From: a virus
Strand: one strand, 5' to 3'
Length of the DNA: 64,000 bases
IMG/VR virus record: IMGVR_UViG_3300045988_177154
Span: 1 to 64,000 of that record
The translations under genes and the position numbers were made by a program. Below the pieces are notes generated by a model. That model had not been told where the DNA came from, made no database searches, and was given only the letters and a program-made list of their open reading frames with translations. Shown in pieces: positions 3,850 through 48,021 of this stretch (its first letter is position 1; each line of letters starts with the position of its first letter).

Positions 3850-4080
3850 TTATCCTTTCATTACTCGTAAATGAGCTTCACTGTTTGGGCCAAAGAACTC
3901 AGGCTTCTGGGCAATATATTCTGCTTCAACATTAGTATAATTTTCCAAATTATCCCAATCTACTGAATTAAGAAGATACCATTCATTTTCATTTAGATAT
4001 TTAAGTAATTCTTCTTTGCTATTAAAAAGCTCTAGTGCAACCCCGTTAATTTTATTGCTCATTGCTAAAATATATTTCAT
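3850..4080 (-). CDS. hypothetical protein, paralog of 3633..3845
   Basis: Tandem duplicate separated by 4 nt. Confidence 0.75.
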   Translation of the reverse strand: MKYILAMSNKINGVALELFNSKEELLKYLNENEWYLLNSVDWDNLENYTNVEAEYIAQKPEFFGPNSEAHLRVMKG

Positions 4081-4095
4081 TGTTTTCTCTCCTTT

Positions 4096-4350
4096 TTACA
4101 AAATATTATCTTCAAAGTAGCTTATCAATTCATCAGCATTATTAAAAGCTCGACCAATTGCAGTAGCAGATTTTGGATAACTACAATTATCTAACTCATT
4201 TAAATCTTTTAGGATTTCGCTCCATTTTGTTATCAAATTACAAGTTTCAAATTCATAGTAAAAACCATTTTTAGTAGTTTCATTAAAGAGTAAAATTGTA
4301 ACGTAATTACCGTCATTGTAGGTTTCAATCACCTTTGTAATATTTTTCAT
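4096..4350 (-). CDS. hypothetical protein
   Basis: 84-aa ORF in the same operon-like string. Confidence 0.7.
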   Translation of the reverse strand: MKNITKVIETYNDGNYVTILLFNETTKNGFYYEFETCNLITKWSEILKDLNELDNCSYPKSATAIGRAFNNADELISYFEDNIL

Positions 4351-4367
4351 TTTTCTTATCCTTTTCT

Positions 4368-4556
4368 TTATTTATAAATTCGGTATTCTTGATTTCCAAC
4401 AAGAGCAGTTTGTACTAGGAAGAATACAGCATAAGTAAGTTCTCCCCAAAAGATAGCTAAAATCCAATCTTCAACAACAAAATGAGCAAGAATTGGAAAG
4501 ATTACCCATCCAAATACGATTATAAACATTAGTAGCAAGTTCTTAATAATTGTCAT
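4368..4556 (-). CDS. small membrane protein
   Basis: 62-aa ORF with two hydrophobic helices. First gene behind the promoter at 4589-4617. Confidence 0.7.
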   Translation of the reverse strand: MTIIKNLLLMFIIVFGWVIFPILAHFVVEDWILAIFWGELTYAVFFLVQTALVGNQEYRIYK

Positions 4557-4588
4557 TGTTTTTTACCTCAATCCTTATTTCTATATTC

Positions 4589-4617
4589 ATTATACAACAA
4601 GAAATATCTTTTGTCAA
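4589..4617 (-). promoter_or_regulatory. sigma-A-type promoter TTGACA-17-TATAAT
   Basis: Plus strand reads ATTATA (4589-4594) and TGTCAA (4612-4617). Confidence 0.8.
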
Positions 4618-4655
4618 CAATTTTATAAAAATAAAAAGAGCTATATAAGCTCCTT

Positions 4656-5087
4656 TTAAAAATCATCATATGCAGCCGCTAAAGCATCCCAATGAATTGC
4701 TTCATCTAGTTCATCTGCATAAAATTCTTTTTCATCTTCAGTACATTTGCTATAAGATTTATGACGACCCCAAGCGTCTTTTTCATCAGAATATAAAATG
4801 TTTTCATCTCCAACTCGTTCACCAATTTTATATTCTTCTTTTGTGCCATGCTCTGGCATGCAGTCAAAACAAACCCAACAACGACCTTTGTCTTTAGGAT
4901 TGATTGTGTAGCAGCTTGATTTAGCTTTAATTAGTTTAGAGCATTCTTCACAGTATCTATCTTTCTTAATAGCAACAATTTTGAAGTTGCTTGTTGGATT
5001 CATTAAAATAAAATGGTTTTCTTCATAGATAGCTCCATACCTATAAATAGTTACTGTTTGAGAATTTACTAATTTAGGTTTATTCAT
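4656..5087 (-). CDS. Cys-rich putative zinc-binding protein
   Basis: 143-aa ORF with CEEC..C...CWVCFDC spacing (CxxC ... CxxCxxC). Confidence 0.7.
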   Translation of the reverse strand: MNKPKLVNSQTVTIYRYGAIYEENHFILMNPTSNFKIVAIKKDRYCEECSKLIKAKSSCYTINPKDKGRCWVCFDCMPEHGTKEEYKIGERVGDENILYSDEKDAWGRHKSYSKCTEDEKEFYADELDEAIHWDALAAAYDDF

Positions 5088-5111
5088 AGTTATCCCCTTT
5101 CAATCAAATTT

Positions 5112-5930
5112 TTAGCTTAGTATCATAGTAAAGAATCCAACAACTACAACTAAGAGTAAAATAACTACAAAAATCATATAAGGTTTCTGTTTTTCAGCAT
5201 CGTCACTTTCTTCATCTTTACTTTCTGAAGCAGTATAATCATCATAATAATAATAGTAGTCATTATAATAATAATTATCATGGTTACGGTTATTCAACAA
5301 ATTCATAAACAATAATTGCTGGGTCAGTGTTGGATAAGCGAAGTTATTCTCAACAGGTGGGTAATAACTCCTATTTGAATATGAGTTCCATGATTCAATA
5401 GGAAGTGTTGGCGGAGCCAAATTCGGATTCTGTACATATGAATTATTTTGAGAAGAGCTTGATTGTCTAGCATTTTTACTAGGGTCATAAATAGCATTAG
5501 GTTGTTTAGCCTTAGAAGTATTTGAGCTTGATTGTGAGTCATTTGACTTCGGTTGTGCATCTGCTGGACGAGAATTTACACTTGGGTCATAGATTGCATT
5601 AGGCTGCTTTGGCTTAGTACTTGATTTTGGAGTACTGCTTGATTTATTAGATTTATTTGACTTGTTTGAGTTTGATTTATTTGAACTCTTATTAGAGTTA
5701 CTATTTGAACTTTTGCTTGAACTCTTTGATGAGCTAGATTTGCTCGAGCTGCCCGAAGAACTTTTTGAAGAGCTTGAACTTCTTGACGAGCTATGACTAG
5801 AACTTCTACTTGAACTATGAGATGAGTGAGATGAATGTCCACCACTATGGCCTCCACGAGCAAGTGCCGTGCCTGGCGATAACAACATAAGTAGAGCAAT
5901 CAGAGCTCCTAACATTTTGATTTTTTTCAT
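5112..5930 (-). CDS. secreted, C-terminally membrane-anchored Ser/His/Lys-rich low-complexity protein
   Basis: Signal peptide MKKIKMLGALIALLMLLSPGTALA. Long HSS/KSS tracts. Duplicated KPKQPNAIYDPS motif. Tyr/Asp-rich stretch, then TM MIFVVILLLVVVVGFFTMIL. Confidence 0.75.
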   Translation of the reverse strand: MKKIKMLGALIALLMLLSPGTALARGGHSGGHSSHSSHSSSRSSSHSSSRSSSSSKSSSGSSSKSSSSKSSSKSSNSNSNKSSNKSNSNKSNKSNKSSSTPKSSTKPKQPNAIYDPSVNSRPADAQPKSNDSQSSSNTSKAKQPNAIYDPSKNARQSSSSQNNSYVQNPNLAPPTLPIESWNSYSNRSYYPPVENNFAYPTLTQQLLFMNLLNNRNHDNYYYNDYYYYYDDYTASESKDEESDDAEKQKPYMIFVVILLLVVVVGFFTMILS

Positions 5931-9943: not shown

Positions 9944-10573
9944 ATGACTATATATAAAGTAGGAGAATTTGCAGAAAAAATTGGAGTTAGTATAAGTACT
10001 TTGCAAAGATGGGATAGAACTGATGTGTTAAAATCAAAGAGAACACCCACTAATCAAAGATATTACACTGACGAAGATTTGAATAAAGTTCTGAACTTAG
10101 AAGCTGAAACAAAAACTAAGCGAAAAAACGTTGGATATTGTAGAGTATCAACACAAGGGCAAAAACATAATTTAGAAAATCAAAAAGAATTTGTTTCAGT
10201 ATATAGTTTAAGTCACGGAGTAATATTAGATGAAATTTATACAGATATTGGAAGTGGCTTGAATTACAAAAGAAAAAATTGGAGTATATTATTAAAACTT
10301 GTTGAAAATAACGAAATAGATAAAATATATGTTACTTACAAAGATAGATTTGTTCGTTTTGGCTATGAATGGTTTGAAGAGTTTTGTGCTTCACATGGAA
10401 CTGAAATAATCGTTTTGAATCAAAAGCAAACAAGCCCCGAAGAAGAATTAACTGAAGATTTATTATCTATACTCCATGTTTTTAGTGAAAGAAATAATGA
10501 TTTGAAAAAATATAAAACAGAAATCAATAAGGAATTGAAAGAAATCAATGAGAAGAAAGAAGAAAGAGACTGA
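9944..10573 (+). CDS. tnpA: IS607-family serine recombinase TnpA (MerR-like HTH + resolvase catalytic domain)
   Basis: N-terminal YKVGEFAEKIGVSISTLQRWDR HTH. Catalytic-serine motif VGYCRVSTQGQ. Overlaps tnpB by 26 nt. Confidence 0.85.
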   Translation: MTIYKVGEFAEKIGVSISTLQRWDRTDVLKSKRTPTNQRYYTDEDLNKVLNLEAETKTKRKNVGYCRVSTQGQKHNLENQKEFVSVYSLSHGVILDEIYTDIGSGLNYKRKNWSILLKLVENNEIDKIYVTYKDRFVRFGYEWFEEFCASHGTEIIVLNQKQTSPEEELTEDLLSILHVFSERNNDLKKYKTEINKELKEINEKKEERD

Positions 10574-11807
10574 AAATCCAATTCCAACTATAACAAGAGC
10601 TCATAAAATTAGAATATATCCCAACAAACATAATCAAGAAGTTTTTCAAAAATATTATGACTATCAACGTTCAATATGGAATAGAGCAATAGATGAAAGA
10701 AATGCTCAATATAAAATCTATAAAGAAATGAAAGCTACTGGATTATATACTCAAAAAGAATTGAATAAGAATTATTTTCCACATACCAACAATTTAAGAA
10801 AAATGGAAAAATTTGATTGGGAAAATAATTTCCATTGTAGAGTAAGAGAGATTCAATTTGATAATTTATGCCAAGCTTGGGATAATTTCTTTAATCCAAA
10901 CATGCCTAATCACAAAAAGCCTAAATACAAGAAGAAAAAAGATGTTGAAACTCATAAGAAACTTGCTTTAAGAAGAGTGAGAACAAAAGGCAAATGGCTT
11001 TTCTTGCCAAAATCTCTAAAATCAAAACCTGAATATAGATTTACTAGAATCAAAATGGCGCAAGAATTAAGATTTGATGGACGAGTAGTAGATGATTTTT
11101 CTGTTTCTGTTGAAAATAATAAATGGTATGTAACTATAACTGTTGAAACACAACTTGAAGAAAAAATTGCAATATCTAATCATTCTACTGGTATTGATGT
11201 AAATGTTGGTTCTATTGACTACTTAAAGAAAGACGGTACAAATAAAGAATATGATAAATTTTATTTATTACCGAAATCATTGCTTAGACAATATGATAAA
11301 ATTAAATTTTATTCAAGAGTAATTTCTAAGAAACGGAATAAAAATCCTTATTATAAGTATAGTAAAAGTTATAAAGAAACGATAACCAAGCTTAATAATG
11401 CTTATACTAAAGCTTATAATATTCAAGAAGCAAATTTAAACAATATGGTTAAATATTTCTTTGATAATTACAATAGGATTGTTATTGAGGATTTAGATGT
11501 TAATTCTATGAAAATGAATAAAAGATTATGTAAATCATTACATAGAAATGCTTTTGGTCGTTTTAAACGAAAGATGGTTAACAAAGCTGAAGAATATAAT
11601 GTAGAGTTCATATTGGCAGATAGATATTTCCCAAGCACTCAAACTTGTTCAGAGTGTGGTCATATTAAGACTGGTGATGAAAAATTATTCCTATGGGGAG
11701 ATAAATATGGTAATGACCACAATACTTATGTTTGTTATAATTGTGGAACAATTCAAGATAGAACTGAAAATGCCATCTTAAATCTCGTTAATTATGGAAA
11801 ACGCTAA
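10548..11807 (+). CDS. tnpB: TnpB RNA-guided endonuclease (intact RuvC and zinc ribbon)
   Basis: RuvC-I GIDVNVG, RuvC-II IVIEDLDV, Zn ribbon CSECG...CYNCG, RuvC-III DRTENAILNL. Confidence 0.85.
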   Translation: MRRKKKETENPIPTITRAHKIRIYPNKHNQEVFQKYYDYQRSIWNRAIDERNAQYKIYKEMKATGLYTQKELNKNYFPHTNNLRKMEKFDWENNFHCRVREIQFDNLCQAWDNFFNPNMPNHKKPKYKKKKDVETHKKLALRRVRTKGKWLFLPKSLKSKPEYRFTRIKMAQELRFDGRVVDDFSVSVENNKWYVTITVETQLEEKIAISNHSTGIDVNVGSIDYLKKDGTNKEYDKFYLLPKSLLRQYDKIKFYSRVISKKRNKNPYYKYSKSYKETITKLNNAYTKAYNIQEANLNNMVKYFFDNYNRIVIEDLDVNSMKMNKRLCKSLHRNAFGRFKRKMVNKAEEYNVEFILADRYFPSTQTCSECGHIKTGDEKLFLWGDKYGNDHNTYVCYNCGTIQDRTENAILNLVNYGKR

Positions 11808-12390: not shown

Positions 12391-12419
12391 TTGACTATTT
12401 TGAAAATAAAAGATATAAT
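12391..12419 (+). promoter_or_regulatory. sigma-A-type promoter TTGACT-17-TATAAT
   Basis: TTGACT at 12391-12396 and TATAAT at 12414-12419. Confidence 0.8.
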
Positions 12420-22650: not shown

Positions 22651-22680
22651 AAAAGAGCAATATTGAATTGCTCTTTTTAT
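22650..22680. terminator. bidirectional intrinsic terminator
   Basis: Hairpin AGAGCAAT-attg-AATTGCTCT between convergent genes, flanked by A- and T-runs. Confidence 0.8.
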
Positions 22681-23504
22681 TTTTTAGTAAAACTTCCGTC
22701 AGAATAATTGATTTCGTAACCAGAAGCGTTATTAAATACTTTCACTTTTTCATTGATTACTCCATCTTCTGATTTTGCATTAACAATAACATAGCGAGGA
22801 ACCAATTCATTTCCGTTATATACAGGTGTTACTTCATAATAAACATTGTTTTTTGTTTTTAGAACATAATCAACAACTTTCTTTTCAATATATTGCATAC
22901 CGCCGTCACCATTGTTACCAACGTTTTGTTGACGAGTACCAGTAACAACATTATATTTATAAGAGCGACCGCCAAGAGAATCAGCAATCAAGTGAGAACG
23001 ATTATAAAAATAACCGTTATAAATTTTTCCATTAGGTAGTTTTACAGAAACCTTTTTGTTATTAGATTTCTTTCCAATAAACCAGCCGCTAGGTTCAGAA
23101 TTTGGTTCGAAGTCAGCTCTCCAACCTTTTGAATCCATTACTGCTTTATAATTAACCAAACCATATGCAGTTGTAGTTCTGTCTAATTCATCATGTGAAT
23201 ATGAATATGTAGTAGAGAATTTACTTTCATCAATTTCTGCTTCACCTAATACTTGATACATATTAGGAAATTTTGCTTCATCATAATCTGATTCAACATC
23301 ATTATTTGAATTTGAAGAAGCAGAATGTTCATTTTTAAAATCATTTACTTTATCTTTTGCTTTTTCATATAAAGATTTTGATTTTTCTTTGATTTCTTGT
23401 TTGACACCAGGGATTTTTTGATAACCAGTTGGGTGAATTTGGCCGCAACCTGTTAGAGCAATTGCTCCTGCTAAGATAATAATTGATTTTGTTAGTTTAT
23501 TCAT
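22677..23504 (-). CDS. lipoprotein DNA/RNA non-specific endonuclease (EndA/NucA-like)
   Basis: Start moved to MNKLTKSIIILAGAIALTGC (lipobox LTGC) with an AGAGG SD. The SHLIADSLGG motif is typical of streptococcal DNA-entry nuclease-type enzymes. Confidence 0.65.
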   Translation of the reverse strand: MNKLTKSIIILAGAIALTGCGQIHPTGYQKIPGVKQEIKEKSKSLYEKAKDKVNDFKNEHSASSNSNNDVESDYDEAKFPNMYQVLGEAEIDESKFSTTYSYSHDELDRTTTAYGLVNYKAVMDSKGWRADFEPNSEPSGWFIGKKSNNKKVSVKLPNGKIYNGYFYNRSHLIADSLGGRSYKYNVVTGTRQQNVGNNGDGGMQYIEKKVVDYVLKTKNNVYYEVTPVYNGNELVPRYVIVNAKSEDGVINEKVKVFNNASGYEINYSDGSFTKK

Positions 23505-23600
23505 TTTTTGTTTACCTCTTTTCTTTATGTAGCTATTATATAATATCTTTAAAAACTTGTCAACCATTTTCTGATATAAAAATAAAAAAGGAGTAAAGTT

Positions 23601-24333: not shown

Positions 24334-25230
24334 ATGCTACAAATGAAAAAACTAGAAGAAAAGGAATGGAAGTATTGGATTCCCTCTGCTGGTAGAGCTG
24401 AAAATATAAAAACTGTTGATTATTTATTATCCATAGGAGTACCGAAAGAAAATATAAATATTATGGTACGAGATGATGAATATGAAGCTTATAATACTAA
24501 ATATAAAGGAATGGCTCATATTCTACCAGAGCAACAAACAAAAAACATTGGTATTATTAGAAATGGAATAGTTAAACTTTGTAATTTTGAAGATTATATT
24601 AACTGTATCTTAGATGATGATACAACTTCATTTTTGATTTGGAGTAATGACGGTACGAAATATGGAAATAGAGCTAAAGTAACCAATATTAAAGATTGGC
24701 AAAATAGATATATTGAAGTATTAAATACATTAGATTTGGATTTAGTTCCAGCAATAGGCCAAAGAGCAGGTGGAAATAATTTTCTATTCCAAAAATGCCT
24801 TACTGAAGAAATCACTTATTTTGGAAGTTTAAGCGGCTCATGCTTTGTTGTATTAGACCCAGATTTTCAATTTATCAATCATTCATTTTATGAAGATAAA
24901 TTAACTTGTTATGATTATTGGGTTAAAGGAAAGATAACACCAATCATTAACAATTTAGGTATGTTACGTTTGCCTGAAAGAACTGCAAAAGGTGGAATAG
25001 ATTATAAAGGCATAGCTAAAGAAATAGAAGAAGCTGTTGACTGGGGAGCAGAACAATTCCCATTTACAGAAAAGAGATTAACTAATGAGAAATACAGAGA
25101 TTACCAACCATGTGAGTTATATACTAACAAATTCCGAATTTTAAAATATTTAGCTTCTATTGGTATTGACCACAAATACATTCCAGAGGAATACAAAAAG
25201 AAAGCTAAGAGAAAAAGCTTATTTGAATAA
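24334..25230 (+). CDS. hypothetical protein, possibly GT-A-like nucleotide-sugar transferase (DxD-type ILDDDT)
   Basis: 298-aa ORF. The weak pattern WIPSAGRAE...ILDDDTTSF suggests a Rossmann-like glycosyltransferase. The start may be at MKKLEEKEW. Confidence 0.3.
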   Translation: MLQMKKLEEKEWKYWIPSAGRAENIKTVDYLLSIGVPKENINIMVRDDEYEAYNTKYKGMAHILPEQQTKNIGIIRNGIVKLCNFEDYINCILDDDTTSFLIWSNDGTKYGNRAKVTNIKDWQNRYIEVLNTLDLDLVPAIGQRAGGNNFLFQKCLTEEITYFGSLSGSCFVVLDPDFQFINHSFYEDKLTCYDYWVKGKITPIINNLGMLRLPERTAKGGIDYKGIAKEIEEAVDWGAEQFPFTEKRLTNEKYRDYQPCELYTNKFRILKYLASIGIDHKYIPEEYKKKAKRKSLFE

Positions 25231-28824: not shown

Positions 28825-28904
28825 TTTTAAAAATCCTCGTTTCTTTTTGTTAGTTATATTATATAATAATTTCTTCACTTAGTCAATAAGGAACAATAAT
28901 TTCA

Positions 28905-29013: not shown

Positions 29014-29053
29014 AAATAAAAGAGAGCAATGTAGATTGCTCTCTTTTTAAGTT

Positions 29054-29830
29054 TTATTTTTTATATTTGTAAGTCTTTTGTGACTTAACACCTTCTTTTC
29101 GCCTTACTCCAACTTCAATAATGAAATTCTTGTACTCACGAAGTACATTTTGACGAATAAGATTTTTATTTGGCAAAATAGCTTTAACAAGATTTAGAAT
29201 TTCTGTAACAGTAAATTCATACCCGAGCATTTGGAAGAAGTTTGGCTTCCATGAATCGTGACCTTGCATACGAGAAATTGCTTCTTGAATTAAGTCATAA
29301 TGGTCAAAAGCAAAATCTTCTTTAGCTAATAATTTGTCACCATCATAAAAAGCATTATCTTTTACATTAACTGTAATAAGTTTAACTTCAAGAGCATCAT
29401 CTTGAGCTTGCATCTCCAAAACTTGCTCATATGGAAGATAAACAATATAACCAATTGTAATAATCCAAGTTCGTGGGTCCCGACCGGGTGTCGATACAGT
29501 TTTTAATTGTTCAATCTGTTCTAAGTTAATAGTAATATTTGTTTCTTCTTTTACTTCACGTAGTACAGCTTGTTCAGCACTTTCATGAGAGCCAACGAAC
29601 CCACCAGGCAAAGCATATTTCAAACGATATGGGTGAGCTTTACGTTGAATCATAAGTAATTTAAGCTCATTATCAATGAATGTAAATGCTGTCATATCTG
29701 TTGTAACAGATGGTTGCTCATATGTAGGTAAATCTTGTTTTTTGTACCAGTCTAAAAATTCTGCTTCAGAAGCAACTTGTTCATAGTAAGTTTTTTCTTC
29801 TTGTTTTGAGTTAAATTTAATTTTTTTCAT
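29054..29830 (-). CDS. Nudix hydrolase with C-terminal winged-helix-like domain (NrtR-like ADP-ribose pyrophosphatase/regulator)
   Basis: Nudix box GGFVGSHESAEQAVLREVKEETNI is nearly complete. The C-terminal ~90 aa (FDHYDLIQEAISRM...FTVTEILNLVKAI...) resemble the NrtR DNA-binding domain. Last gene of the nadR-pnuC string. Confidence 0.65.
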   Translation of the reverse strand: MKKIKFNSKQEEKTYYEQVASEAEFLDWYKKQDLPTYEQPSVTTDMTAFTFIDNELKLLMIQRKAHPYRLKYALPGGFVGSHESAEQAVLREVKEETNITINLEQIEQLKTVSTPGRDPRTWIITIGYIVYLPYEQVLEMQAQDDALEVKLITVNVKDNAFYDGDKLLAKEDFAFDHYDLIQEAISRMQGHDSWKPNFFQMLGYEFTVTEILNLVKAILPNKNLIRQNVLREYKNFIIEVGVRRKEGVKSQKTYKYKK

Positions 29831-29883
29831 ATTCTAACTCCTTTCAATCTTATTATAAACTTATCTCAATAATAAGTCAATCT

Positions 29884-30645
29884 TTATTTAGTACTTTTAA
29901 CCCAGTTGTACCAACCAATAATACTGTTTAATAGATATACCCAGTACATTCCTTGAATATGAATGTTGGTTCCCCACCATAGATAAATTGAGAATACGTT
30001 AGTTAGTACCCATAATAGCCAAGATAAGTTAGCAAAACGTTGAGTTTGACCGATTTGAGCACCAACACTTAAGCCGTTTGTGATAGCATCTCTGAATGGA
30101 CGAGCTGAACCAATGCTTTGGAAAGCAAATCCCATACTTAACCAAGCAATAAATACAAACACGAAGTATTTCACATAATCCATAATTGACTCTTTACGAG
30201 CAACAAATTCAGAAGTTTCAGTATTTTTGATACGAGCAGTTAACCAAGCATAAATTCCAATTGGTTGCATAATTACATAGAATACTGCTATCATAACTTC
30301 TCCATAGAATAAGTTAGATAATGCTAAATAGAAATAAATGATGTTAGAGATTAAACCGAATAGATAATTACTAGCACGACCTTCTGCTACAAGGATAACA
30401 CATAATATACCAGTTAAACTTGATGTAAGACCTAAATAGTCATGCTCATTTCCACTTGTAAACTCCAAGATAATTGGAACAGAAGCAAGAATTAGTAAGT
30501 ATAGCCAGGCACCCAGACTTCGGTTATCAAAGAAATCATCAACGATTCCTTTTAACACTTTCTTAAATCCAAGTTCTTTTGCTTTGCCTGTAATGAGGCC
30601 AATATTTTGAGGGATAGCTGCAATGTTTGATTGTAAATTTTTCAT
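29884..30645 (-). CDS. pnuC: nicotinamide riboside transporter PnuC
   Basis: 253 aa with about 7 TM helices and Trp-rich helices (WLLWVLTNVFSIYLWW, WVYLLNSIIGWYNW) typical of PnuC. The start lies 2 nt after the nadR stop. Confidence 0.75.
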   Translation of the reverse strand: MKNLQSNIAAIPQNIGLITGKAKELGFKKVLKGIVDDFFDNRSLGAWLYLLILASVPIILEFTSGNEHDYLGLTSSLTGILCVILVAEGRASNYLFGLISNIIYFYLALSNLFYGEVMIAVFYVIMQPIGIYAWLTARIKNTETSEFVARKESIMDYVKYFVFVFIAWLSMGFAFQSIGSARPFRDAITNGLSVGAQIGQTQRFANLSWLLWVLTNVFSIYLWWGTNIHIQGMYWVYLLNSIIGWYNWVKSTK

Positions 30646-30647
30646 AG

Positions 30648-31703
30648 TTAGTACTCCTTATAAATGTTTTCAATTTCTTTAATAGCTTTATTGTAATTTC
30701 CTAGATAATCTTCATCTAGGAAGATAAGTTTTGTGTCTTTATGATTTTCTTTAGTAATTTGTAATAGATAATCTGTAAATGCTTGTCTGATTTGTTCATC
30801 AGCCATAGTCATGTCACGGAACCCATCATCAACATACTCACCTGTTGGTTGTACAAATAAGATTAAATCCCATTTTTCTTTAGTTACAAGTGATTTGTAA
30901 AGGTGTTCAACTGCCTTAATGTCTAAATCAGTATCAGATGAAGATTCATCTAAGTAATAGTCATAATAAGCTTTAGTTACGGTAGAATTTGTATCAGCAA
31001 TAACCAAACCTTTATTTTCTTTTGAGTCGATAGCTTTAGAAGTTTGAGCATATTGACCGTCTAACAAGTAGAAATAATCTTTAGCAGTAAGTTCATCATC
31101 TCTAACATTATTAGTTGTTTGGTATTCTCTTGCATATTCCAAACTTGTTGGAGCAGAGTAGAACAATCCTAAATCTTTAACAAGAGTAGTTTTTCCATTA
31201 GAAGCAGAGCCTAATACAAGAACTTTCTTAGTAAAGTGTCGTTTGAATGGTTGAGCAATAAATCTCCAATATTGGAAAGGATTTTCACGAATTAGACTAG
31301 CGCTAATTCCAAAGTTTCTTTCTTCTGATTGAGTTTTAAAGCCACGTTTTTGTAATTCTTCCACATATTCATCTTCATTAACAAAGAAGAGTAAATCATC
31401 ATCTTTATTAGTATTAGATACGTTGAAGAGTTCGTCTAGCCAAACGTCCCAACCTTCAGGCATAAGTGGCATATTAGCTTCATCTAATTTTGAGACTTCC
31501 ACAAGAGCATCATCATTAAATACTTCTCGGATATAGCGGAAACGTTTTTGAAGTGACAGTCCAATTTGGTCACCTCTATCACCTTCTCTGCCAGACACGA
31601 TAACTTTAACAGAATCGCAAATTCGTTTAGCTTTAATAATTAGGTCAATATGACCTCTGTGCATAGGAGCAAACGTTCCAAACACAATTCCTACTGTTTT
31701 CAT
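30648..31703 (-). CDS. nadR: bifunctional NMN adenylyltransferase / ribosylnicotinamide kinase (NadR type, no N-terminal HTH)
   Basis: GTFAPMHRGH nucleotidyltransferase motif at residues 9-18. Second-domain P-loop LVLGSASNGKTTLVKDL. 351 aa. Confidence 0.8.
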   Translation of the reverse strand: MKTVGIVFGTFAPMHRGHIDLIIKAKRICDSVKVIVSGREGDRGDQIGLSLQKRFRYIREVFNDDALVEVSKLDEANMPLMPEGWDVWLDELFNVSNTNKDDDLLFFVNEDEYVEELQKRGFKTQSEERNFGISASLIRENPFQYWRFIAQPFKRHFTKKVLVLGSASNGKTTLVKDLGLFYSAPTSLEYAREYQTTNNVRDDELTAKDYFYLLDGQYAQTSKAIDSKENKGLVIADTNSTVTKAYYDYYLDESSSDTDLDIKAVEHLYKSLVTKEKWDLILFVQPTGEYVDDGFRDMTMADEQIRQAFTDYLLQITKENHKDTKLIFLDEDYLGNYNKAIKEIENIYKEY

Positions 31704-31716
31704 ATAGATTACCTAT

Positions 31717-31736
31717 AAGTATCAAATTTGATACTT
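31717..31736. promoter_or_regulatory. perfect 20-bp palindrome in the nadR leader (candidate NrtR-type operator)
   Basis: AAGTATCAAATTTGATACTT is its own reverse complement and lies 14-33 nt upstream of the nadR ATG. A degenerate relative, ATAAATATCAAAATTTAT, lies at 31771-31788. Confidence 0.5.
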
Positions 31737-31801
31737 TCCTTTCTAAAAAAATTTGAATGGTATTTCATACATAAATATCAAAATTTATATTTTTGTTATT
31801 T

Positions 31802-31832
31802 ATATTATTCCACAACTGAGCTATAAAGTCAA
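31802..31832 (-). promoter_or_regulatory. promoter of the nadR-pnuC-nudix operon (TTGACT -35; AT-rich -10 region)
   Basis: Plus strand reads AGTCAA at 31827-31832. A -10 candidate, AATAAT or TAATAT, lies 17-19 nt downstream on the minus strand. Confidence 0.55.
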
Positions 31833-31889
31833 CCATTTTGAAAAACTTTTTTAAAAAAATAAAAAATCAGTAATTAAACTGATTTGTTT

Positions 31890-34790: not shown

Positions 34791-34881
34791 TTTGTTTTCC
34801 TCATTTCTTAATTTCTATATTCATTATACAATACAAATTATTCTTTGTCAACACTTTTTTGAAAAAATTTTAAAAAAGTTT

Positions 34882-35499
34882 TTAAGCAGTTAATTCTTTG
34901 ATTTCATAACCAACATGAGTAAGACTTCCACGGTAATATACTCCTTGCTGATTGTTCTTAACTGAGGCACTGGCGTAATAAGATTTACCTGAAGCAAAAA
35001 TAAATTCTTCGTTGTTATCACCTTTATAAATTTTATAAGGTTTGTACAATTTCATTGTACGTTTTGTGAATTTTTTGCTAGCAGGTGTTTTACCAGATGA
35101 ACTAATATTCAATTCATAAAGTTTCATTTCAAAGTCATAAGAGCCATCATTAAAATTCTTTCCTTGTACTGATAAAGCATAATGAACAAGCTCATGCTTC
35201 AAAGTATCGTAAACTTCTTCTAAATCTCCAACAATAAGAGCCGCTGTAAGATGAGTCTTGGATAATTCAATACTAATAGGCATAAACTCTCCAAAATACA
35301 TTCTTGACATATAGCGACCTAATGTACTACTTAAACGGCCATTCATTTTGATAGGAATTTCAAGTCGCATATTAAAGTTTTCCATTAAGAATTTATTAGC
35401 AAAAGCTTTTGCTTCTTTTAGGAATGCTGAAAATTCTTTTGCTTTTTCGATTTTAAGTTTTTCATATTCTCTAATTGATAGTTTTACTGTCTTTACCAT
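34882..35499 (-). CDS. SprT-like zinc metalloprotease domain protein
   Basis: Start moved to MVKTVKL (35499), which has a GGGGGA SD. HELVHYALSVQGKNFNDGSYDFEMKL matches the SprT-like HExxH...DF pattern. Confidence 0.6.
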   Translation of the reverse strand: MVKTVKLSIREYEKLKIEKAKEFSAFLKEAKAFANKFLMENFNMRLEIPIKMNGRLSSTLGRYMSRMYFGEFMPISIELSKTHLTAALIVGDLEEVYDTLKHELVHYALSVQGKNFNDGSYDFEMKLYELNISSSGKTPASKKFTKRTMKLYKPYKIYKGDNNEEFIFASGKSYYASASVKNNQQGVYYRGSLTHVGYEIKELTA

Positions 35500-35512
35500 A
35501 ATTTTATCCCCC

Positions 35513-35731
35513 TTATTTAACTTGATTGAATCGTGTAACCATTTCTTTCGTAACAACAACTGAAGTAGAAAGTGGATTAGCTTGATTTACAGGTTTAAAT
35601 TCCATAACAATTGGTTCATTCAAGAATGATTCAATATAGTAGCGAATAGCTTTCATTTGTTTTGAAGTAATTTTCTTGTAATCTGTAAATAGAGTAATTG
35701 TATTACCACTTTTTGTTGCAAGTTCAAACAT
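35513..35731 (-). CDS. hypothetical protein
   Basis: 72-aa ORF behind the promoter at 35775-35803. Confidence 0.75.
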   Translation of the reverse strand: MFELATKSGNTITLFTDYKKITSKQMKAIRYYIESFLNEPIVMEFKPVNQANPLSTSVVVTKEMVTRFNQVK

Positions 35732-35803: not shown

Positions 35804-35841
35804 CAATTAAATACAAAAAAGAACTATTTTTAAATAGTTCT

Positions 35842-36219
35842 TTAAGAATGGAGTAAAACTTGTATAGAGATTGAATATTGATAATGGCGGCTGCCATCTA
35901 AAGGTTGGAATATTCTATGTGATTCAATTTGAAATAATGATTCAGATTTAGATATAGCAAGCTCATAAATGATAGTATCAATATTGGAGCGCTCTTTTGA
36001 AGTTTCATTGTATGAAGAATAACTTAAAATATCTTTTTCTTTTAATTTCTCTAATGCAGATTTAGTTTTATGAATTATAAGAGAGTCAGTATTTAATTGG
36101 GAGATTTGATTTAACAAAAAGTTATAAAGCTTGTCATTAGCTTCTGTTTCTAATGGAGTAGAGAAAGTATTATAAGTATCACAGTGATTTACGCTAGTAA
36201 TTGAAATAAGGGATTTCAT
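35842..36219 (-). CDS. hypothetical protein, paralog of 36244..36639
   Basis: Shared MK(S/F)(L/F)ISI..VNH.D, SALEKLKEKDILSYSSYNETS / SILESLKEQDILSYSSYKEAS, and SISIQVLL/SISVQVLL. Confidence 0.8.
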   Translation of the reverse strand: MKSLISITSVNHCDTYNTFSTPLETEANDKLYNFLLNQISQLNTDSLIIHKTKSALEKLKEKDILSYSSYNETSKERSNIDTIIYELAISKSESLFQIESHRIFQPLDGSRHYQYSISIQVLLHS

Positions 36220-47031: not shown

Positions 47032-48021
47032 TCAACCTTTCTTTCCTAGCAAACTCATATATTTTTCATAAATCACTTCATCAATAACTCGACTAGCAGA
47101 ATCAATCTTAGAAAAATCTGTAATTAAAGCAAGTACATCTTCATCTAGTTTATCTTTCTTGATAGCTTTTGCTGAAATACCATCATGTGCTTTCATATGT
47201 TGATAAATTGCTTCAACAATCTTCAAATGTGAATCACTTAAATCATCTTTGAATTTAACAAGAGCGTACATTGCTCCAACATATTGATGGTTTGCAAACA
47301 TACTATGTGAACCATGAACTTCAACAAAGTAATCATGTGCTACTCCTTTTGACTGAGAAGGTTTCTTAGTAATTCCTTTACCCAAATCATGCAATTCTGC
47401 CAAAGTAACAATTTCATCTTTTGTGTAATGAATTGATTCAGATTGAGCTTTAGCACCATCAATAGTCATTTGAATATGTGTGTCAACATCTTCGGCATGA
47501 TATGGAGAATCGTGCTTCATTCCTTTAATCATAGCAATTTCATCTTCAAAAGCTTTGTAATCACCAATAACTTCAATTTTATCACAATCAACACTAATAC
47601 GTGGCACTTGTAAGCTTTCATACATACGGCGAATAACACTTTCAGGTACTTTTGCAAATCCACTACGTTGAGCATTTTGTTCCAAAATAGTAGCAAGAGG
47701 TTTTACTAATACAATAGCTTCAATTTCTGTATATTTCTTGAATTGTTCATAAAATCCTTTACGAAGTTTACGATTCAAGTTAGTAGCGTCATAAAAGATA
47801 GTATCATATTGTTTAGACAAAAGAGCTTCTCTCATTCGCTCATGAAGTGTTTTGAAAACAACTGGAATAGCTTCAGGTGCATTACCAGCTTCCAAATCGC
47901 CAAACAATTCAATGCGTAATTCATCAGAAGATAGTACTAATGATTTTTCTGTTTTAACTTTTTGAATATATGTTGATTTTCCTACGCCAGCAACTCCAAT
48001 CAATACTTTAATCTTAGTCAT
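47032..48021 (-). CDS. P-loop (polynucleotide-kinase/AAA_33-like) kinase fused to an HD phosphohydrolase domain
   Basis: Walker A IGVAGVGKST at the N-terminus. HD signature LAELHDLGK and downstream His residues in the C-terminal half. Confidence 0.6.
   Translation of the reverse strand: MTKIKVLIGVAGVGKSTYIQKVKTEKSLVLSSDELRIELFGDLEAGNAPEAIPVVFKTLHERMREALLSKQYDTIFYDATNLNRKLRKGFYEQFKKYTEIEAIVLVKPLATILEQNAQRSGFAKVPESVIRRMYESLQVPRISVDCDKIEVIGDYKAFEDEIAMIKGMKHDSPYHAEDVDTHIQMTIDGAKAQSESIHYTKDEIVTLAELHDLGKGITKKPSQSKGVAHDYFVEVHGSHSMFANHQYVGAMYALVKFKDDLSDSHLKIVEAIYQHMKAHDGISAKAIKKDKLDEDVLALITDFSKIDSASRVIDEVIYEKYMSLLGKKG

Follow-up and report, generated by a model that had tools for sequence, protein, structure and literature searches.

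Does a phage that brings its own genes for the salvage of nicotinamide adenine dinucleotide (NAD+) also bring the means of controlling them, and to which signal would such a control respond? The question is raised by three consecutive genes on the minus strand of the IMG/VR virus record IMGVR_UViG_3300045988_177154, of which positions 1 to 64,000 were analysed (this stretch of 64,000 nucleotides is called the window). They encode a NadR-type enzyme, a PnuC-type transporter and a Nudix protein related to the NrtR regulators, and a first-pass annotation made from the sequence alone had taken them for a host NAD module captured by a phage together with its regulator. The enzyme and the importer correspond to NARP3, the pathway described by Yan et al. 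(Sci Adv, Aug 2026, PMC13464706), in which PnuC and a NadR without helix-turn-helix (HTH) restore NAD+ and phage growth against the Sir2-HerA and DSR1 defences. In our reading, to which a probability of roughly 60% is given, the locus is a repressor-controlled and probably ADP-ribose (ADPR)-inducible module of the NARP3 type, carried by a jumbo phage and derived from an operon of the Streptococcus type.

The enzyme, the importer and the Nudix protein

The positions, strands and spacing of the genes given in the first-pass annotation were recovered when the open reading frames (ORFs) were derived again. All three ORFs are co-directional, with 2 nucleotides (nt) between nadR and pnuC and 53 nt between pnuC and the Nudix gene (Table 1). 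By its domain content the product of nadR, of 351 amino acids (aa), is a bifunctional nicotinamide mononucleotide (NMN) adenylyltransferase and ribosylnicotinamide kinase. Pfam places CTP_transf_like at residues 7-140 and AAA_28 at residues 160-319, and the peptides GTFAPMHRGH (residues 9-18) and GSASNGKTT (residues 165-173), both quoted in the annotation, are present together with ISAS. The protein matches phrog_3462, 'nicotinamide-nucleotide adenylyltransferase' (E 1.9e-84), and the NCBIfam model TIGR01526, nadR_NMN_Atrans, at E 6e-80 and 268.8 bits against an equivalog cut-off of 341.15 bits. Among structures it aligns with PDB 6GYE, deposited as a NadR-family NMN adenylyltransferase (NMNAT)/ribosylnicotinamide kinase (E 6.8e-80), and over its full length with 9X6F, the NARP3 enzyme Bas30_86 (E 2.4e-33). 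The N-terminal HTH is judged to be missing because the alignment to the trifunctional NadR model PRK08099 begins at model position 63.

The 253-aa product of pnuC is recognised as a PnuC nicotinamide riboside transporter from its matches to PF04973 (E 8.6e-35), TIGR01528 (154.9 bits, over the cut-off of 42.45), phrog_1880 and PDB 4QTN (E 4.5e-22). About 6-7 hydrophobic segments appear in a hydropathy scan, and 10 residues (4.0%) are Trp. The earlier descriptions of an HTH-less NadR and of a Trp-rich PnuC with about seven transmembrane segments are therefore supported by Pfam, NCBIfam and PHROG as well as by these counts.

The third product, of 258 aa, is assigned from alignments and a predicted structure to the NrtR family, with an ADPR-pyrophosphatase-like Nudix domain followed by a C-terminal winged HTH. 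When the domains expected by the annotation were searched with profiles, CTP_transf_like, AAA_28, PF04973 and PF00293 (E 4e-14) were found, whereas the Pfam model NrtR_WHD stayed under its threshold (19.1 bits against 27) and the NCBIfam model NF050029 gave 90 bits against a cut-off of 400. The NrtR architecture comes instead from structures: residues 5-244 align with the NrtR-family structure 2FML/EF2700 (E 1.5e-50) and residues 22-251 with the Shewanella NrtR 3GZ5 (E 4e-20). An AlphaFold model with a predicted local distance difference test score (pLDDT) of 90.8 superposes over its full length on 2FML, 3GZ6 and AraR, and its comparison with 3GZ6, the Shewanella NrtR-DNA complex, gives a target-normalised template-modelling (TM) score of 0.77 and a root-mean-square deviation of 3.1 A. 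The same model predicts the winged-helix elements as helices at 208-218 and 226-233 and strands at 237-245 and 248-256.

The Nudix box, GGFVGSHESAEQAVLREVKEETNI at residues 76-99, reads G77-x5-E83-x7-R91-E92-V-x-E95-E96-x-N98-I99 and departs from the signature GX5EX7REUXEEXGU only by a Gly-to-Asn replacement, in agreement with the nearly intact box claimed earlier. The Asn is found throughout the phage lineage. Hydrolysis of ADPR by this protein is possible because the Arg and Glu residues of the box (R91, E92, E95 and E96) are invariant across 17 homologues. Most NrtR members have a perturbed signature; where it is intact, ADPR pyrophosphatase activity is possible, NuhA being an example (Rodionov et al. 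2008, PMC2330246). ADPR is the effector of NrtR from Synechocystis, Shewanella, Streptococcus suis and Mycobacterium smegmatis and antagonises the binding of NrtR to DNA (PMC2330246, PMC6800001). The phage protein shares with this family the Nudix plus winged-helix fold and a gene adjoining NAD salvage genes, and differs from it by its nearly intact signature and its viral origin.

Relatives of the window were located via protein searches. The closest carry Nudix proteins 96-98% identical to that of the window, on IMG/VR viral contigs of 262 and 315 kb, and a more distant lineage (L004 below), with Nudix proteins 82% identical, is found on metagenomic contigs of 142-349 kb. Within the protein, constraint is strongest on the winged-helix domain. 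Between the window and L004 this domain (residues 191-258) is 96% identical with a ratio of nonsynonymous to synonymous substitution rates (dN/dS) of 0.022, against 78% and 0.18 for the Nudix domain, at a dS of about 0.9 for the Nudix gene. Of the helices predicted in the winged-helix domain the second, RQNVLREY, was taken as the recognition helix; along with the wing it is identical in all sequences of the phage lineage.

The nadR leader and its candidate operators

The 186-nt leader of nadR contains the perfect palindrome AAGTATCAAATTTGATACTT (31717-31736), the sole perfect 20-bp palindrome of the window, and a degenerate relative, ATAAATATCAAAATTTAT (31771-31788), both lying exactly where the first-pass annotation had placed them. 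Comparison with the relatives gave the proposed operator conserved sites while changing its form, since what is kept is a pair of 16-bp sites of the type TATCA-N4-TGATA, a distal O1 and a proximal O2 (Table 1), and no streptococcal box. The exact motif occurs once in the window against 0.17 expected, and its one-mismatch copy stands 56 bp away in the same leader; at one-mismatch stringency the whole window gives five matches against about 6 expected. O1 begins 13 nt past the -10 element and so spans about +7 to +22 counted from the start of transcription, and the 20-bp palindrome around O2 ends 3 nt before the Shine-Dalgarno sequence AGG (31712-31714). This placement between the -10 element and the start codon is the typical position of NrtR sites.

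From one phage lineage to another O1 and O2 are kept, whereas the leader around them diverges. In L004, O1 is ATATCAATTCTGATAT, fully symmetric and identical at 14 of 16 positions, and O2 is GTATCAGATTTGATAC, identical at 15 of 16. The DNA between the sites is identical at only 24 of 40 positions, with 7 gaps, and has a 7-8-nt deletion, and the spacer between the -35 and -10 elements is identical at 6 of 16. The arms of O2 are invariant among the window, L094 and L004, whereas its central 4 nt vary (AATT, ATTT, GATT). Moreover, the single arm change in the O1 of L004, from A to C, makes the TATCA/TGATA symmetry perfect.

NrtR operator motifs are known to be lineage-specific within the family (PMC2330246). 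The phage leader contains no match to the streptococcal box, of the form ATA-N-TTTA-N3-TAAAA-N2-ATA, even with 2 mismatches allowed, and the idea that the phage kept the operator of its donor was dropped for this reason. In streptococci the box ATAGTTTATAATAAAATCATA occurs once per nadR promoter and overlaps the -10 element in nearly every locus tested; the phage has instead two TATCA-N4-TGATA sites downstream of the -10 element. The predicted recognition helix has changed as well, five of the eight positions of RQNVLREY differing from the streptococcal SNNFLVKF. As far as can be judged from these sequences, the altered helix fits the changed operator.

The 53-nt gap before the Nudix gene contains a consensus promoter that the first-pass annotation had missed. 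Its hexamers are kept and its spacer varies in the window, L094, L010, L004, L095 and L006. Such a separate promoter is absent from streptococcal operons, in which nrtR abuts or overlaps pnuC. Autoregulation of the Nudix gene via TATCA-N4-TGATA was considered and rejected, as no such site is found at the Nudix promoter and the palindromes of its spacer are not conserved. A scan of IMG/VR with AAGTATCANNNNTGATAC gave chance matches, and among the matches listed NadR or PnuC was encoded in 0 of 119 loci. The nadR-pnuC promoter is one of the near-consensus sigma-70 class enriched in the window, and its -10 element is kept in the diverged L004 lineage (8 of 9 positions). Upstream of it, a terminator-like hairpin of the preceding gene, read directly from the sequence, appears to insulate the nadR unit from upstream transcription. 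This hairpin is kept in the closest relatives (L010, L011 and L012) and absent from the leaders of the L004 group; it was not called by the terminator scan because its stem has fewer than three G-C pairs. The unit is closed by a bidirectional intrinsic terminator.

Streptococcus-type origin, known pathways and competing explanations

When one genome per bacterial species was scanned, the nearest cellular relatives of the Nudix protein came from oral and gut streptococci, namely Streptococcus sanguinis, S. gordonii, S. parasanguinis and S. australis (48-53% identity), and the same loci hold the closest NadR (58-61%) and PnuC (48-51%) in co-linear order. For S. mitis, S. gordonii and S. sanguinis the arrangement '#nadR-pnuC-nrtR', with a site upstream of nadR, was described by Rodionov et al. 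(2008, PMC2330246), and, according to PMC6800001, it was validated for the NrtR of S. suis, a repressor antagonised by ADPR (Wang et al. 2019). Enterococcal NrtR-like genes reach 37-45% identity and have no adjoining nadR or pnuC. Gene order, gene content and the presence of a regulatory site upstream of nadR are thus the same in the phage and in streptococci, at an overall protein identity of 48-61%. These comparisons indicate that the module derives from a Streptococcus-type nadR-pnuC-nrtR operon and has retained an NrtR-family regulator, and the earlier view of a captured host module agrees with this, all three closest cellular relatives being located in that operon. The GC content of the phage operon (32.8%, against 46.6% in the streptococcal one) has shifted towards the phage's own. 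The capture is therefore old, or the donor was an unsampled organism of low GC content.

The first-pass annotation had supposed that a route made of PnuC and a ribosylnicotinamide kinase was new to phages. This is not the case. Phage NadR was listed by Iyer et al. (2022, PMC9503650), and NadR with PnuC was predicted as a further NAD+ reconstitution pathway by Osterman et al. (2024, bioRxiv 10.1101/2024.02.11.579819), before its validation in 2026 as NARP3. In gut jumbo phages pnuC, found in 68 of 174 'NAD-jumbo phages', and nadR clusters were described in 2024 (PMC11662467). NadR homologues were moreover detected by tblastn in 435 deposited phage records. The enzyme and importer core of our locus is therefore already known as the published NARP3 counter-defence, and the suggestion that it would help the phage against NADases, made for this locus from its sequence, had been published for the two-gene core. 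A phage NrtR-type regulator is mentioned neither in PMC9503650, PMC13464706 and PMC11662467 nor in 10.1101/2024.02.11.579819.

NARP3 of the Escherichia phage TrudiRoth (the NadR-like Bas30_86 and the PnuC-like Bas30_87) has, as the window does, adjacent genes for PnuC and for an HTH-less NMNAT/ribosylnicotinamide kinase, and by analogy its chemistry, from nicotinamide riboside to NMN and then NAD+, is expected for the window pair. However, NARP3 consists of two genes, occurs mainly in phages of Enterobacteriaceae and is described with no mention of a regulator (PMC13464706), whereas the window has a third gene of the NrtR family, two operator-like sites and a separate promoter. The window also differs in its gene order, nadR then pnuC, in belonging to a low-GC jumbo phage, and in a NadR that is much nearer to those of Lactobacillales, represented by 6GYE and the streptococcal enzymes, than to Bas30_86.

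Two deposited phages of Lactobacillales come closer in gene content. Genes annotated as pnuC, nadR and a Nudix 'ADP-ribose pyrophosphatase' adjoin one another in Lactobacillus phage Bacchae (Herelleviridae) and in Leuconostoc phage phiLM33_01; the NadR is 40-41% identical to that of the window and the gene order is different. Their Nudix proteins, of 178 aa in Bacchae (L001 5068-5604) and of 248 aa in phiLM33_01 (L002 2472-3218, domain at 133-223), are plain hydrolases without an NrtR-type winged helix, and their similarity to the window protein is confined to the Nudix box; the longer one was considered as NrtR-like and rejected on this ground. Since they are unrelated to the window protein outside the box, a Nudix partner of the pnuC-nadR pathway appears to have been recruited more than once. 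NARP2 and the NadV-NatV pair of phage KVP40 (Nampt plus NMNAT-Nudix) are likewise phage NAD+ salvage routes that end in an NMN adenylyltransferase and include a NadM-type Nudix domain. They start, however, from nicotinamide via Nampt, have neither transporter nor kinase, and their Nudix domain is fused to NMNAT and not to a DNA-binding domain.

The following mechanism can be proposed. The host RNA polymerase, with a sigma-70-type factor, would transcribe the NrtR-like gene from its own promoter, and the protein, as a dimer, would bind O1 and O2 and keep the expression of nadR-pnuC low. Sir2-, TIR- and DSR-type defences make ADPR from NAD+ (abstract of 10.1101/2024.02.11.579819), and this ADPR, by analogy with the cellular regulators, could fill the Nudix pocket and free the leader of its repressor. 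PnuC would then import nicotinamide riboside and NadR would turn it into NMN and further into NAD+, refilling the pool that the phage needs, while the nearly intact Nudix box may allow the protein to hydrolyse ADPR as well. By analogy with NARP3 the module may in this way counter NAD-depleting defence in the host of this phage. What may be new is a NARP3-type module that has retained a probable ADPR-sensing repressor of the NrtR family, with re-tooled operators and a dedicated promoter. Modules of this type reach well beyond the phages of Enterobacteriaceae, into a low-GC jumbo phage family with Streptococcus-type genes, and the locus offers a concrete case of a candidate phage-encoded regulator responsive to a small molecule on a counter-defence operon. 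An ADPR-responsive genetic switch might also be built from the 16-bp sites and the 258-aa protein.

A narrower proposal, advanced here tentatively and as a real possibility at somewhat less than even odds, is that the protein acts as an ADPR sensor by which the counter-defence is switched on by the product of the NADase, only when a Sir2/TIR/DSR-type system fires, perhaps with hydrolysis of ADPR in addition. If true, a virus would sense triggered host immunity through the ADPR by-product of Sir2/TIR NADases and answer it transcriptionally. This proposal is supported because NrtR-like genes recur beside Nampt, PncA/PncB and NMNAT-type genes with palindromes nearby. In IMG/VR, 72 loci encode relatives of the Nudix protein, many of them on contigs of 100-600 kb, and 23 were examined in which the match reached far enough towards the C-terminus to take in the winged-helix region, although some of these contigs may be mis-binned. 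Among the neighbouring ORFs NAD genes dominate, with 15 of the NAPRTase family (8 of Nampt type and 7 of PncB type), 9 of NMNAT type, 7 for isochorismatase/PncA, 6 for NAD synthase (NadE), and 1 each for CinA and PnuC. In several of the 23 a long perfect palindrome immediately precedes the NrtR-like gene or an ORF beside it, and the arm sequence differs from lineage to lineage: TGTACTA-N9-TAGTACA in three related loci, ATAGTAGTAAAAAACTACTAT twice ahead of an nrtR-NMNAT-pncA-x-pncB cluster, and TGTAATCA-N3-TGATTACA ahead of an nrtR-like gene and again ahead of pncA-prs on a 214-kb contig. These palindromes suggest, at the level of sequence, that phage-borne NrtR regulons exist. Regulator-controlled NAD salvage may be common in large phages and could amount to a general layer of phage counter-defence that has not been described so far.

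Several observations weigh against the repressor reading. Perfect 20-bp palindromes are expected at 0.32 per 64 kb, and at least one arose in 26% of Markov simulations, so that the palindrome alone proves nothing. The footprint comes from only two well-separated phage lineages and is correspondingly shallow. The distance between the centres of O1 and O2 is 56, 55, 57 and 49 bp across lineages, for which reason a fixed helical phasing was rejected and a fixed looping geometry is disfavoured. The sites, being even palindromes of 16-20 bp, match neither the streptococcal NrtR box nor the 21-bp palindrome with the GT-N7-AC core, and because they match no published NrtR motif it is co-location and co-conservation that link them to the protein; its binding to O1 and O2, and ADPR as the inducer, are inferred from these and from the kinship with NrtR. 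Finally, in two relatives, L006 (349 kb, 4424-5902) and L095 (315 kb, 3946-5853), nadR and the leader with the operators are missing, as is pnuC wholly or for the most part (the region corresponds to 29884-31840 of the window), and the Nudix gene with its promoter is intact. That gene and promoter outlast the rest of the module hints that the protein has a function beyond this operon, either as an enzyme or as a regulator of other genes. The remnants are a nadR fragment (aa 30-168) with the last pnuC codons in L006 and the 3' end of pnuC (aa 185-253) in L095, and the loss in L006 looks recent, since its Nudix protein does not differ from the one in the intact L004 lineage. TnpB/Cas12f1-like genes are found at the deletion site in both, as a resolvase plus TnpB-like pair in L006 and a TnpB-like gene in L095.

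The survival of the Nudix gene with its own promoter in these two genomes is also what would be expected if the protein were mainly an enzyme, an ADPR pyrophosphatase that recycles ADPR to adenosine monophosphate and ribose-5-phosphate or clears ADPR-type products or signals, the palindromes being unrelated to it. The invariant catalytic residues, the single replacement in the box and the active NrtR members with intact signature, such as NuhA, are compatible with this, and the pairing of pnuC-nadR with plain Nudix hydrolases in Lactobacillales phages suggests selection for Nudix chemistry beside the pathway. Nevertheless, the strongest purifying selection falls on the winged helix, which would be surprising in a protein that is an enzyme and nothing else; the Nudix signature has one residue replaced, and the NrtR of S. 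suis is reported to have no hydrolase activity (PMC6800001). A purely or mainly enzymatic role is for these reasons considered unlikely, though it deserves to be taken seriously, and its milder form, a bifunctional Nudix protein, is compatible with repression from O1 and O2.

About equally doubtful is that the module is a general metabolic booster, supplying NAD+ for the large phage's own reactions or in an NAD-poor host, with NrtR holding a costly importer and enzyme in homeostatic balance as it does in streptococci. The phage took over in one piece an operon that serves housekeeping salvage in bacteria, the NAD synthesis genes widely carried by gut jumbo phages were read by the authors of PMC11662467 as an independent NAD supply, and the 20 larger window ORFs that were scanned include no recognised gene for NADase defence or for anti-defence. 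On the other hand, the homologous two-gene module counters Sir2-HerA and DSR1 (PMC13464706), and the two roles do not exclude each other.

It is less probable still that the palindromes act as RNA hairpins in the 5' untranslated region, affecting mRNA stability or ribosome access, or that they bind another host or phage factor. O2 does form an 8-bp hairpin in the minimum-energy and centroid folds, just ahead of the Shine-Dalgarno sequence, and conserved arms with a variable centre would suit a stem-loop too. However, the leader is not unusually stable (z = -0.50) and compensatory changes are seen in 0 of 16 pairs. O1 and O2 share their arm sequence, which is needed by a protein operator and not by two hairpins, and the A-to-C change in L004 disrupts the distal element in its RNA-fold register while perfecting its DNA symmetry. 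A riboswitch or known RNA was rejected on the same ordinary stability and absence of covariation, together with Rfam, in which nothing near threshold, NAD+ riboswitches included, was found for the locus and nothing at gathering score for the whole window. Repression from O1 and O2 by the NrtR-like protein is thus preferred for the leader.

Genomic setting

The locus belongs to a jumbo-phage family with contigs of 140-350 kb. This assignment is made because its relatives lie on large viral contigs, the window carries phage genes, tRNA and rRNA genes are missing (0 tRNA genes in the window and no Rfam family above threshold) and sigma-70 promoters are enriched. PHROG matches include a Dda-like helicase, a minor head protein and a lytic tail protein/transglycosylase, which together with the near-identical loci on the two IMG/VR viral contigs substantiate the phage-like surroundings noticed earlier. 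That the region is a bacterial chromosome or another mobile element mis-binned as phage is highly improbable: many window ORFs have no family match, and no match in 50,697 deposited phage genomes was found by megablast and blastn of the locus or by megablast of window positions 1-25000, but the viral contigs, these phage genes, the glycosyltransferase and endonuclease of Table 1, the lack of tRNA genes and of Rfam families above threshold, and a GC content of 28.7% against 44-46% in streptococcal donor-type loci all speak for a virus.

Table 1. Coordinates of the features of the locus, of other window features and of palindromes in related loci (window positions unless a locus is named)
Feature	Position	Strand	Remarks
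Nudix/NrtR-like gene	29054-29830	-	258 aa
pnuC gene	29884-30645	-	253 aa; begins 2 nt past the nadR stop
nadR-like gene	30648-31703	-	351 aa
O2, proximal operator candidate	31719-31734		GTATCAAATTTGATAC; core of the perfect 20-bp palindrome
O1, distal operator candidate	31775-31790		ATATAAATTTTGATAT (transcribed strand); one-mismatch TATCA-N4-TGATA
nadR-pnuC promoter	31804-31832	-	TTGACT, 17 nt, AATAAT, TG extended -10; promoter scan, 10/12 matches
Nudix-gene promoter	29852-29880	-	TTGACT, 17 nt, TATAAT, then AAAGGAG; 11/12 matches; in the pnuC-Nudix gap
Terminator-like hairpin of upstream gene	31864-31885	-	AAATCAGT-TTAATT-ACTGATTT, then T-run to about 31850; read from sequence
Bidirectional intrinsic terminator	29018-29047		13-bp stem; terminator scan and inverted repeat I1; closes the unit
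Near-consensus sigma-70 promoters (examples)	12391-12419, 28858-28886, 29852-29880, 34823-34851		
DNA/RNA non-specific endonuclease	22677-23567	-	family match
TET-associated glycosyltransferase (TAGT)	24334-25230	+	family match
SprT-like protein	34882-35559	-	weak, sub-threshold match
Polynucleotide kinase/RNA-ligase-like protein	47032-48021	-	family match
Upstream perfect palindrome	L104 5949-5971		by regulator or NAD genes (NMNAT, PncA, PncB, prs, Nampt)
Upstream perfect palindrome	L106 5969-5991		by regulator or NAD genes (NMNAT, PncA, PncB, prs, Nampt)
Upstream perfect palindrome	L103 5917-5939		by regulator or NAD genes (NMNAT, PncA, PncB, prs, Nampt)
Upstream perfect palindromes	L111/L118 5903-5923 and 5938-5958		by regulator or NAD genes
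Upstream perfect palindromes	L126 942-960 and 1722-1740		by regulator or NAD genes

Near-consensus sigma-70 promoters of the form TTGAC(T/A)-N17-TATAAT number 20 in the window against 2.0 expected, a 10-fold excess that was reached in 0 of 100 shuffles, and this suggests that this part of the genome leans heavily on the host RNA polymerase. The TAGT, endonuclease, kinase/ligase and SprT-like ORFs give a hint of DNA hypermodification, host DNA degradation and RNA repair functions in the neighbourhood of the NAD module.

The record names of related contigs point to human-associated metagenome sets, and the closest cellular homologues are those of oral streptococci. Judged by these names and homologues the phage may come from the human oral or gut microbiome, its GC content being far below that of streptococci.

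A 209-aa ORF overlapping a 419-aa ORF occupies positions 9944-11807 on the plus strand, the latter matching PHROG 506 'transposase' (E 2e-63), and the pair looks like an IS607/IS605-type insertion element within the phage genome. The resolvase and TnpB-like pair of L006 is of the same kind. In addition, positions 35818-35843 of the window form a perfect inverted repeat, AAAGAACTATTT-NN-AAATAGTTCTTT, whose 12-nt arms stand 2 nt apart.

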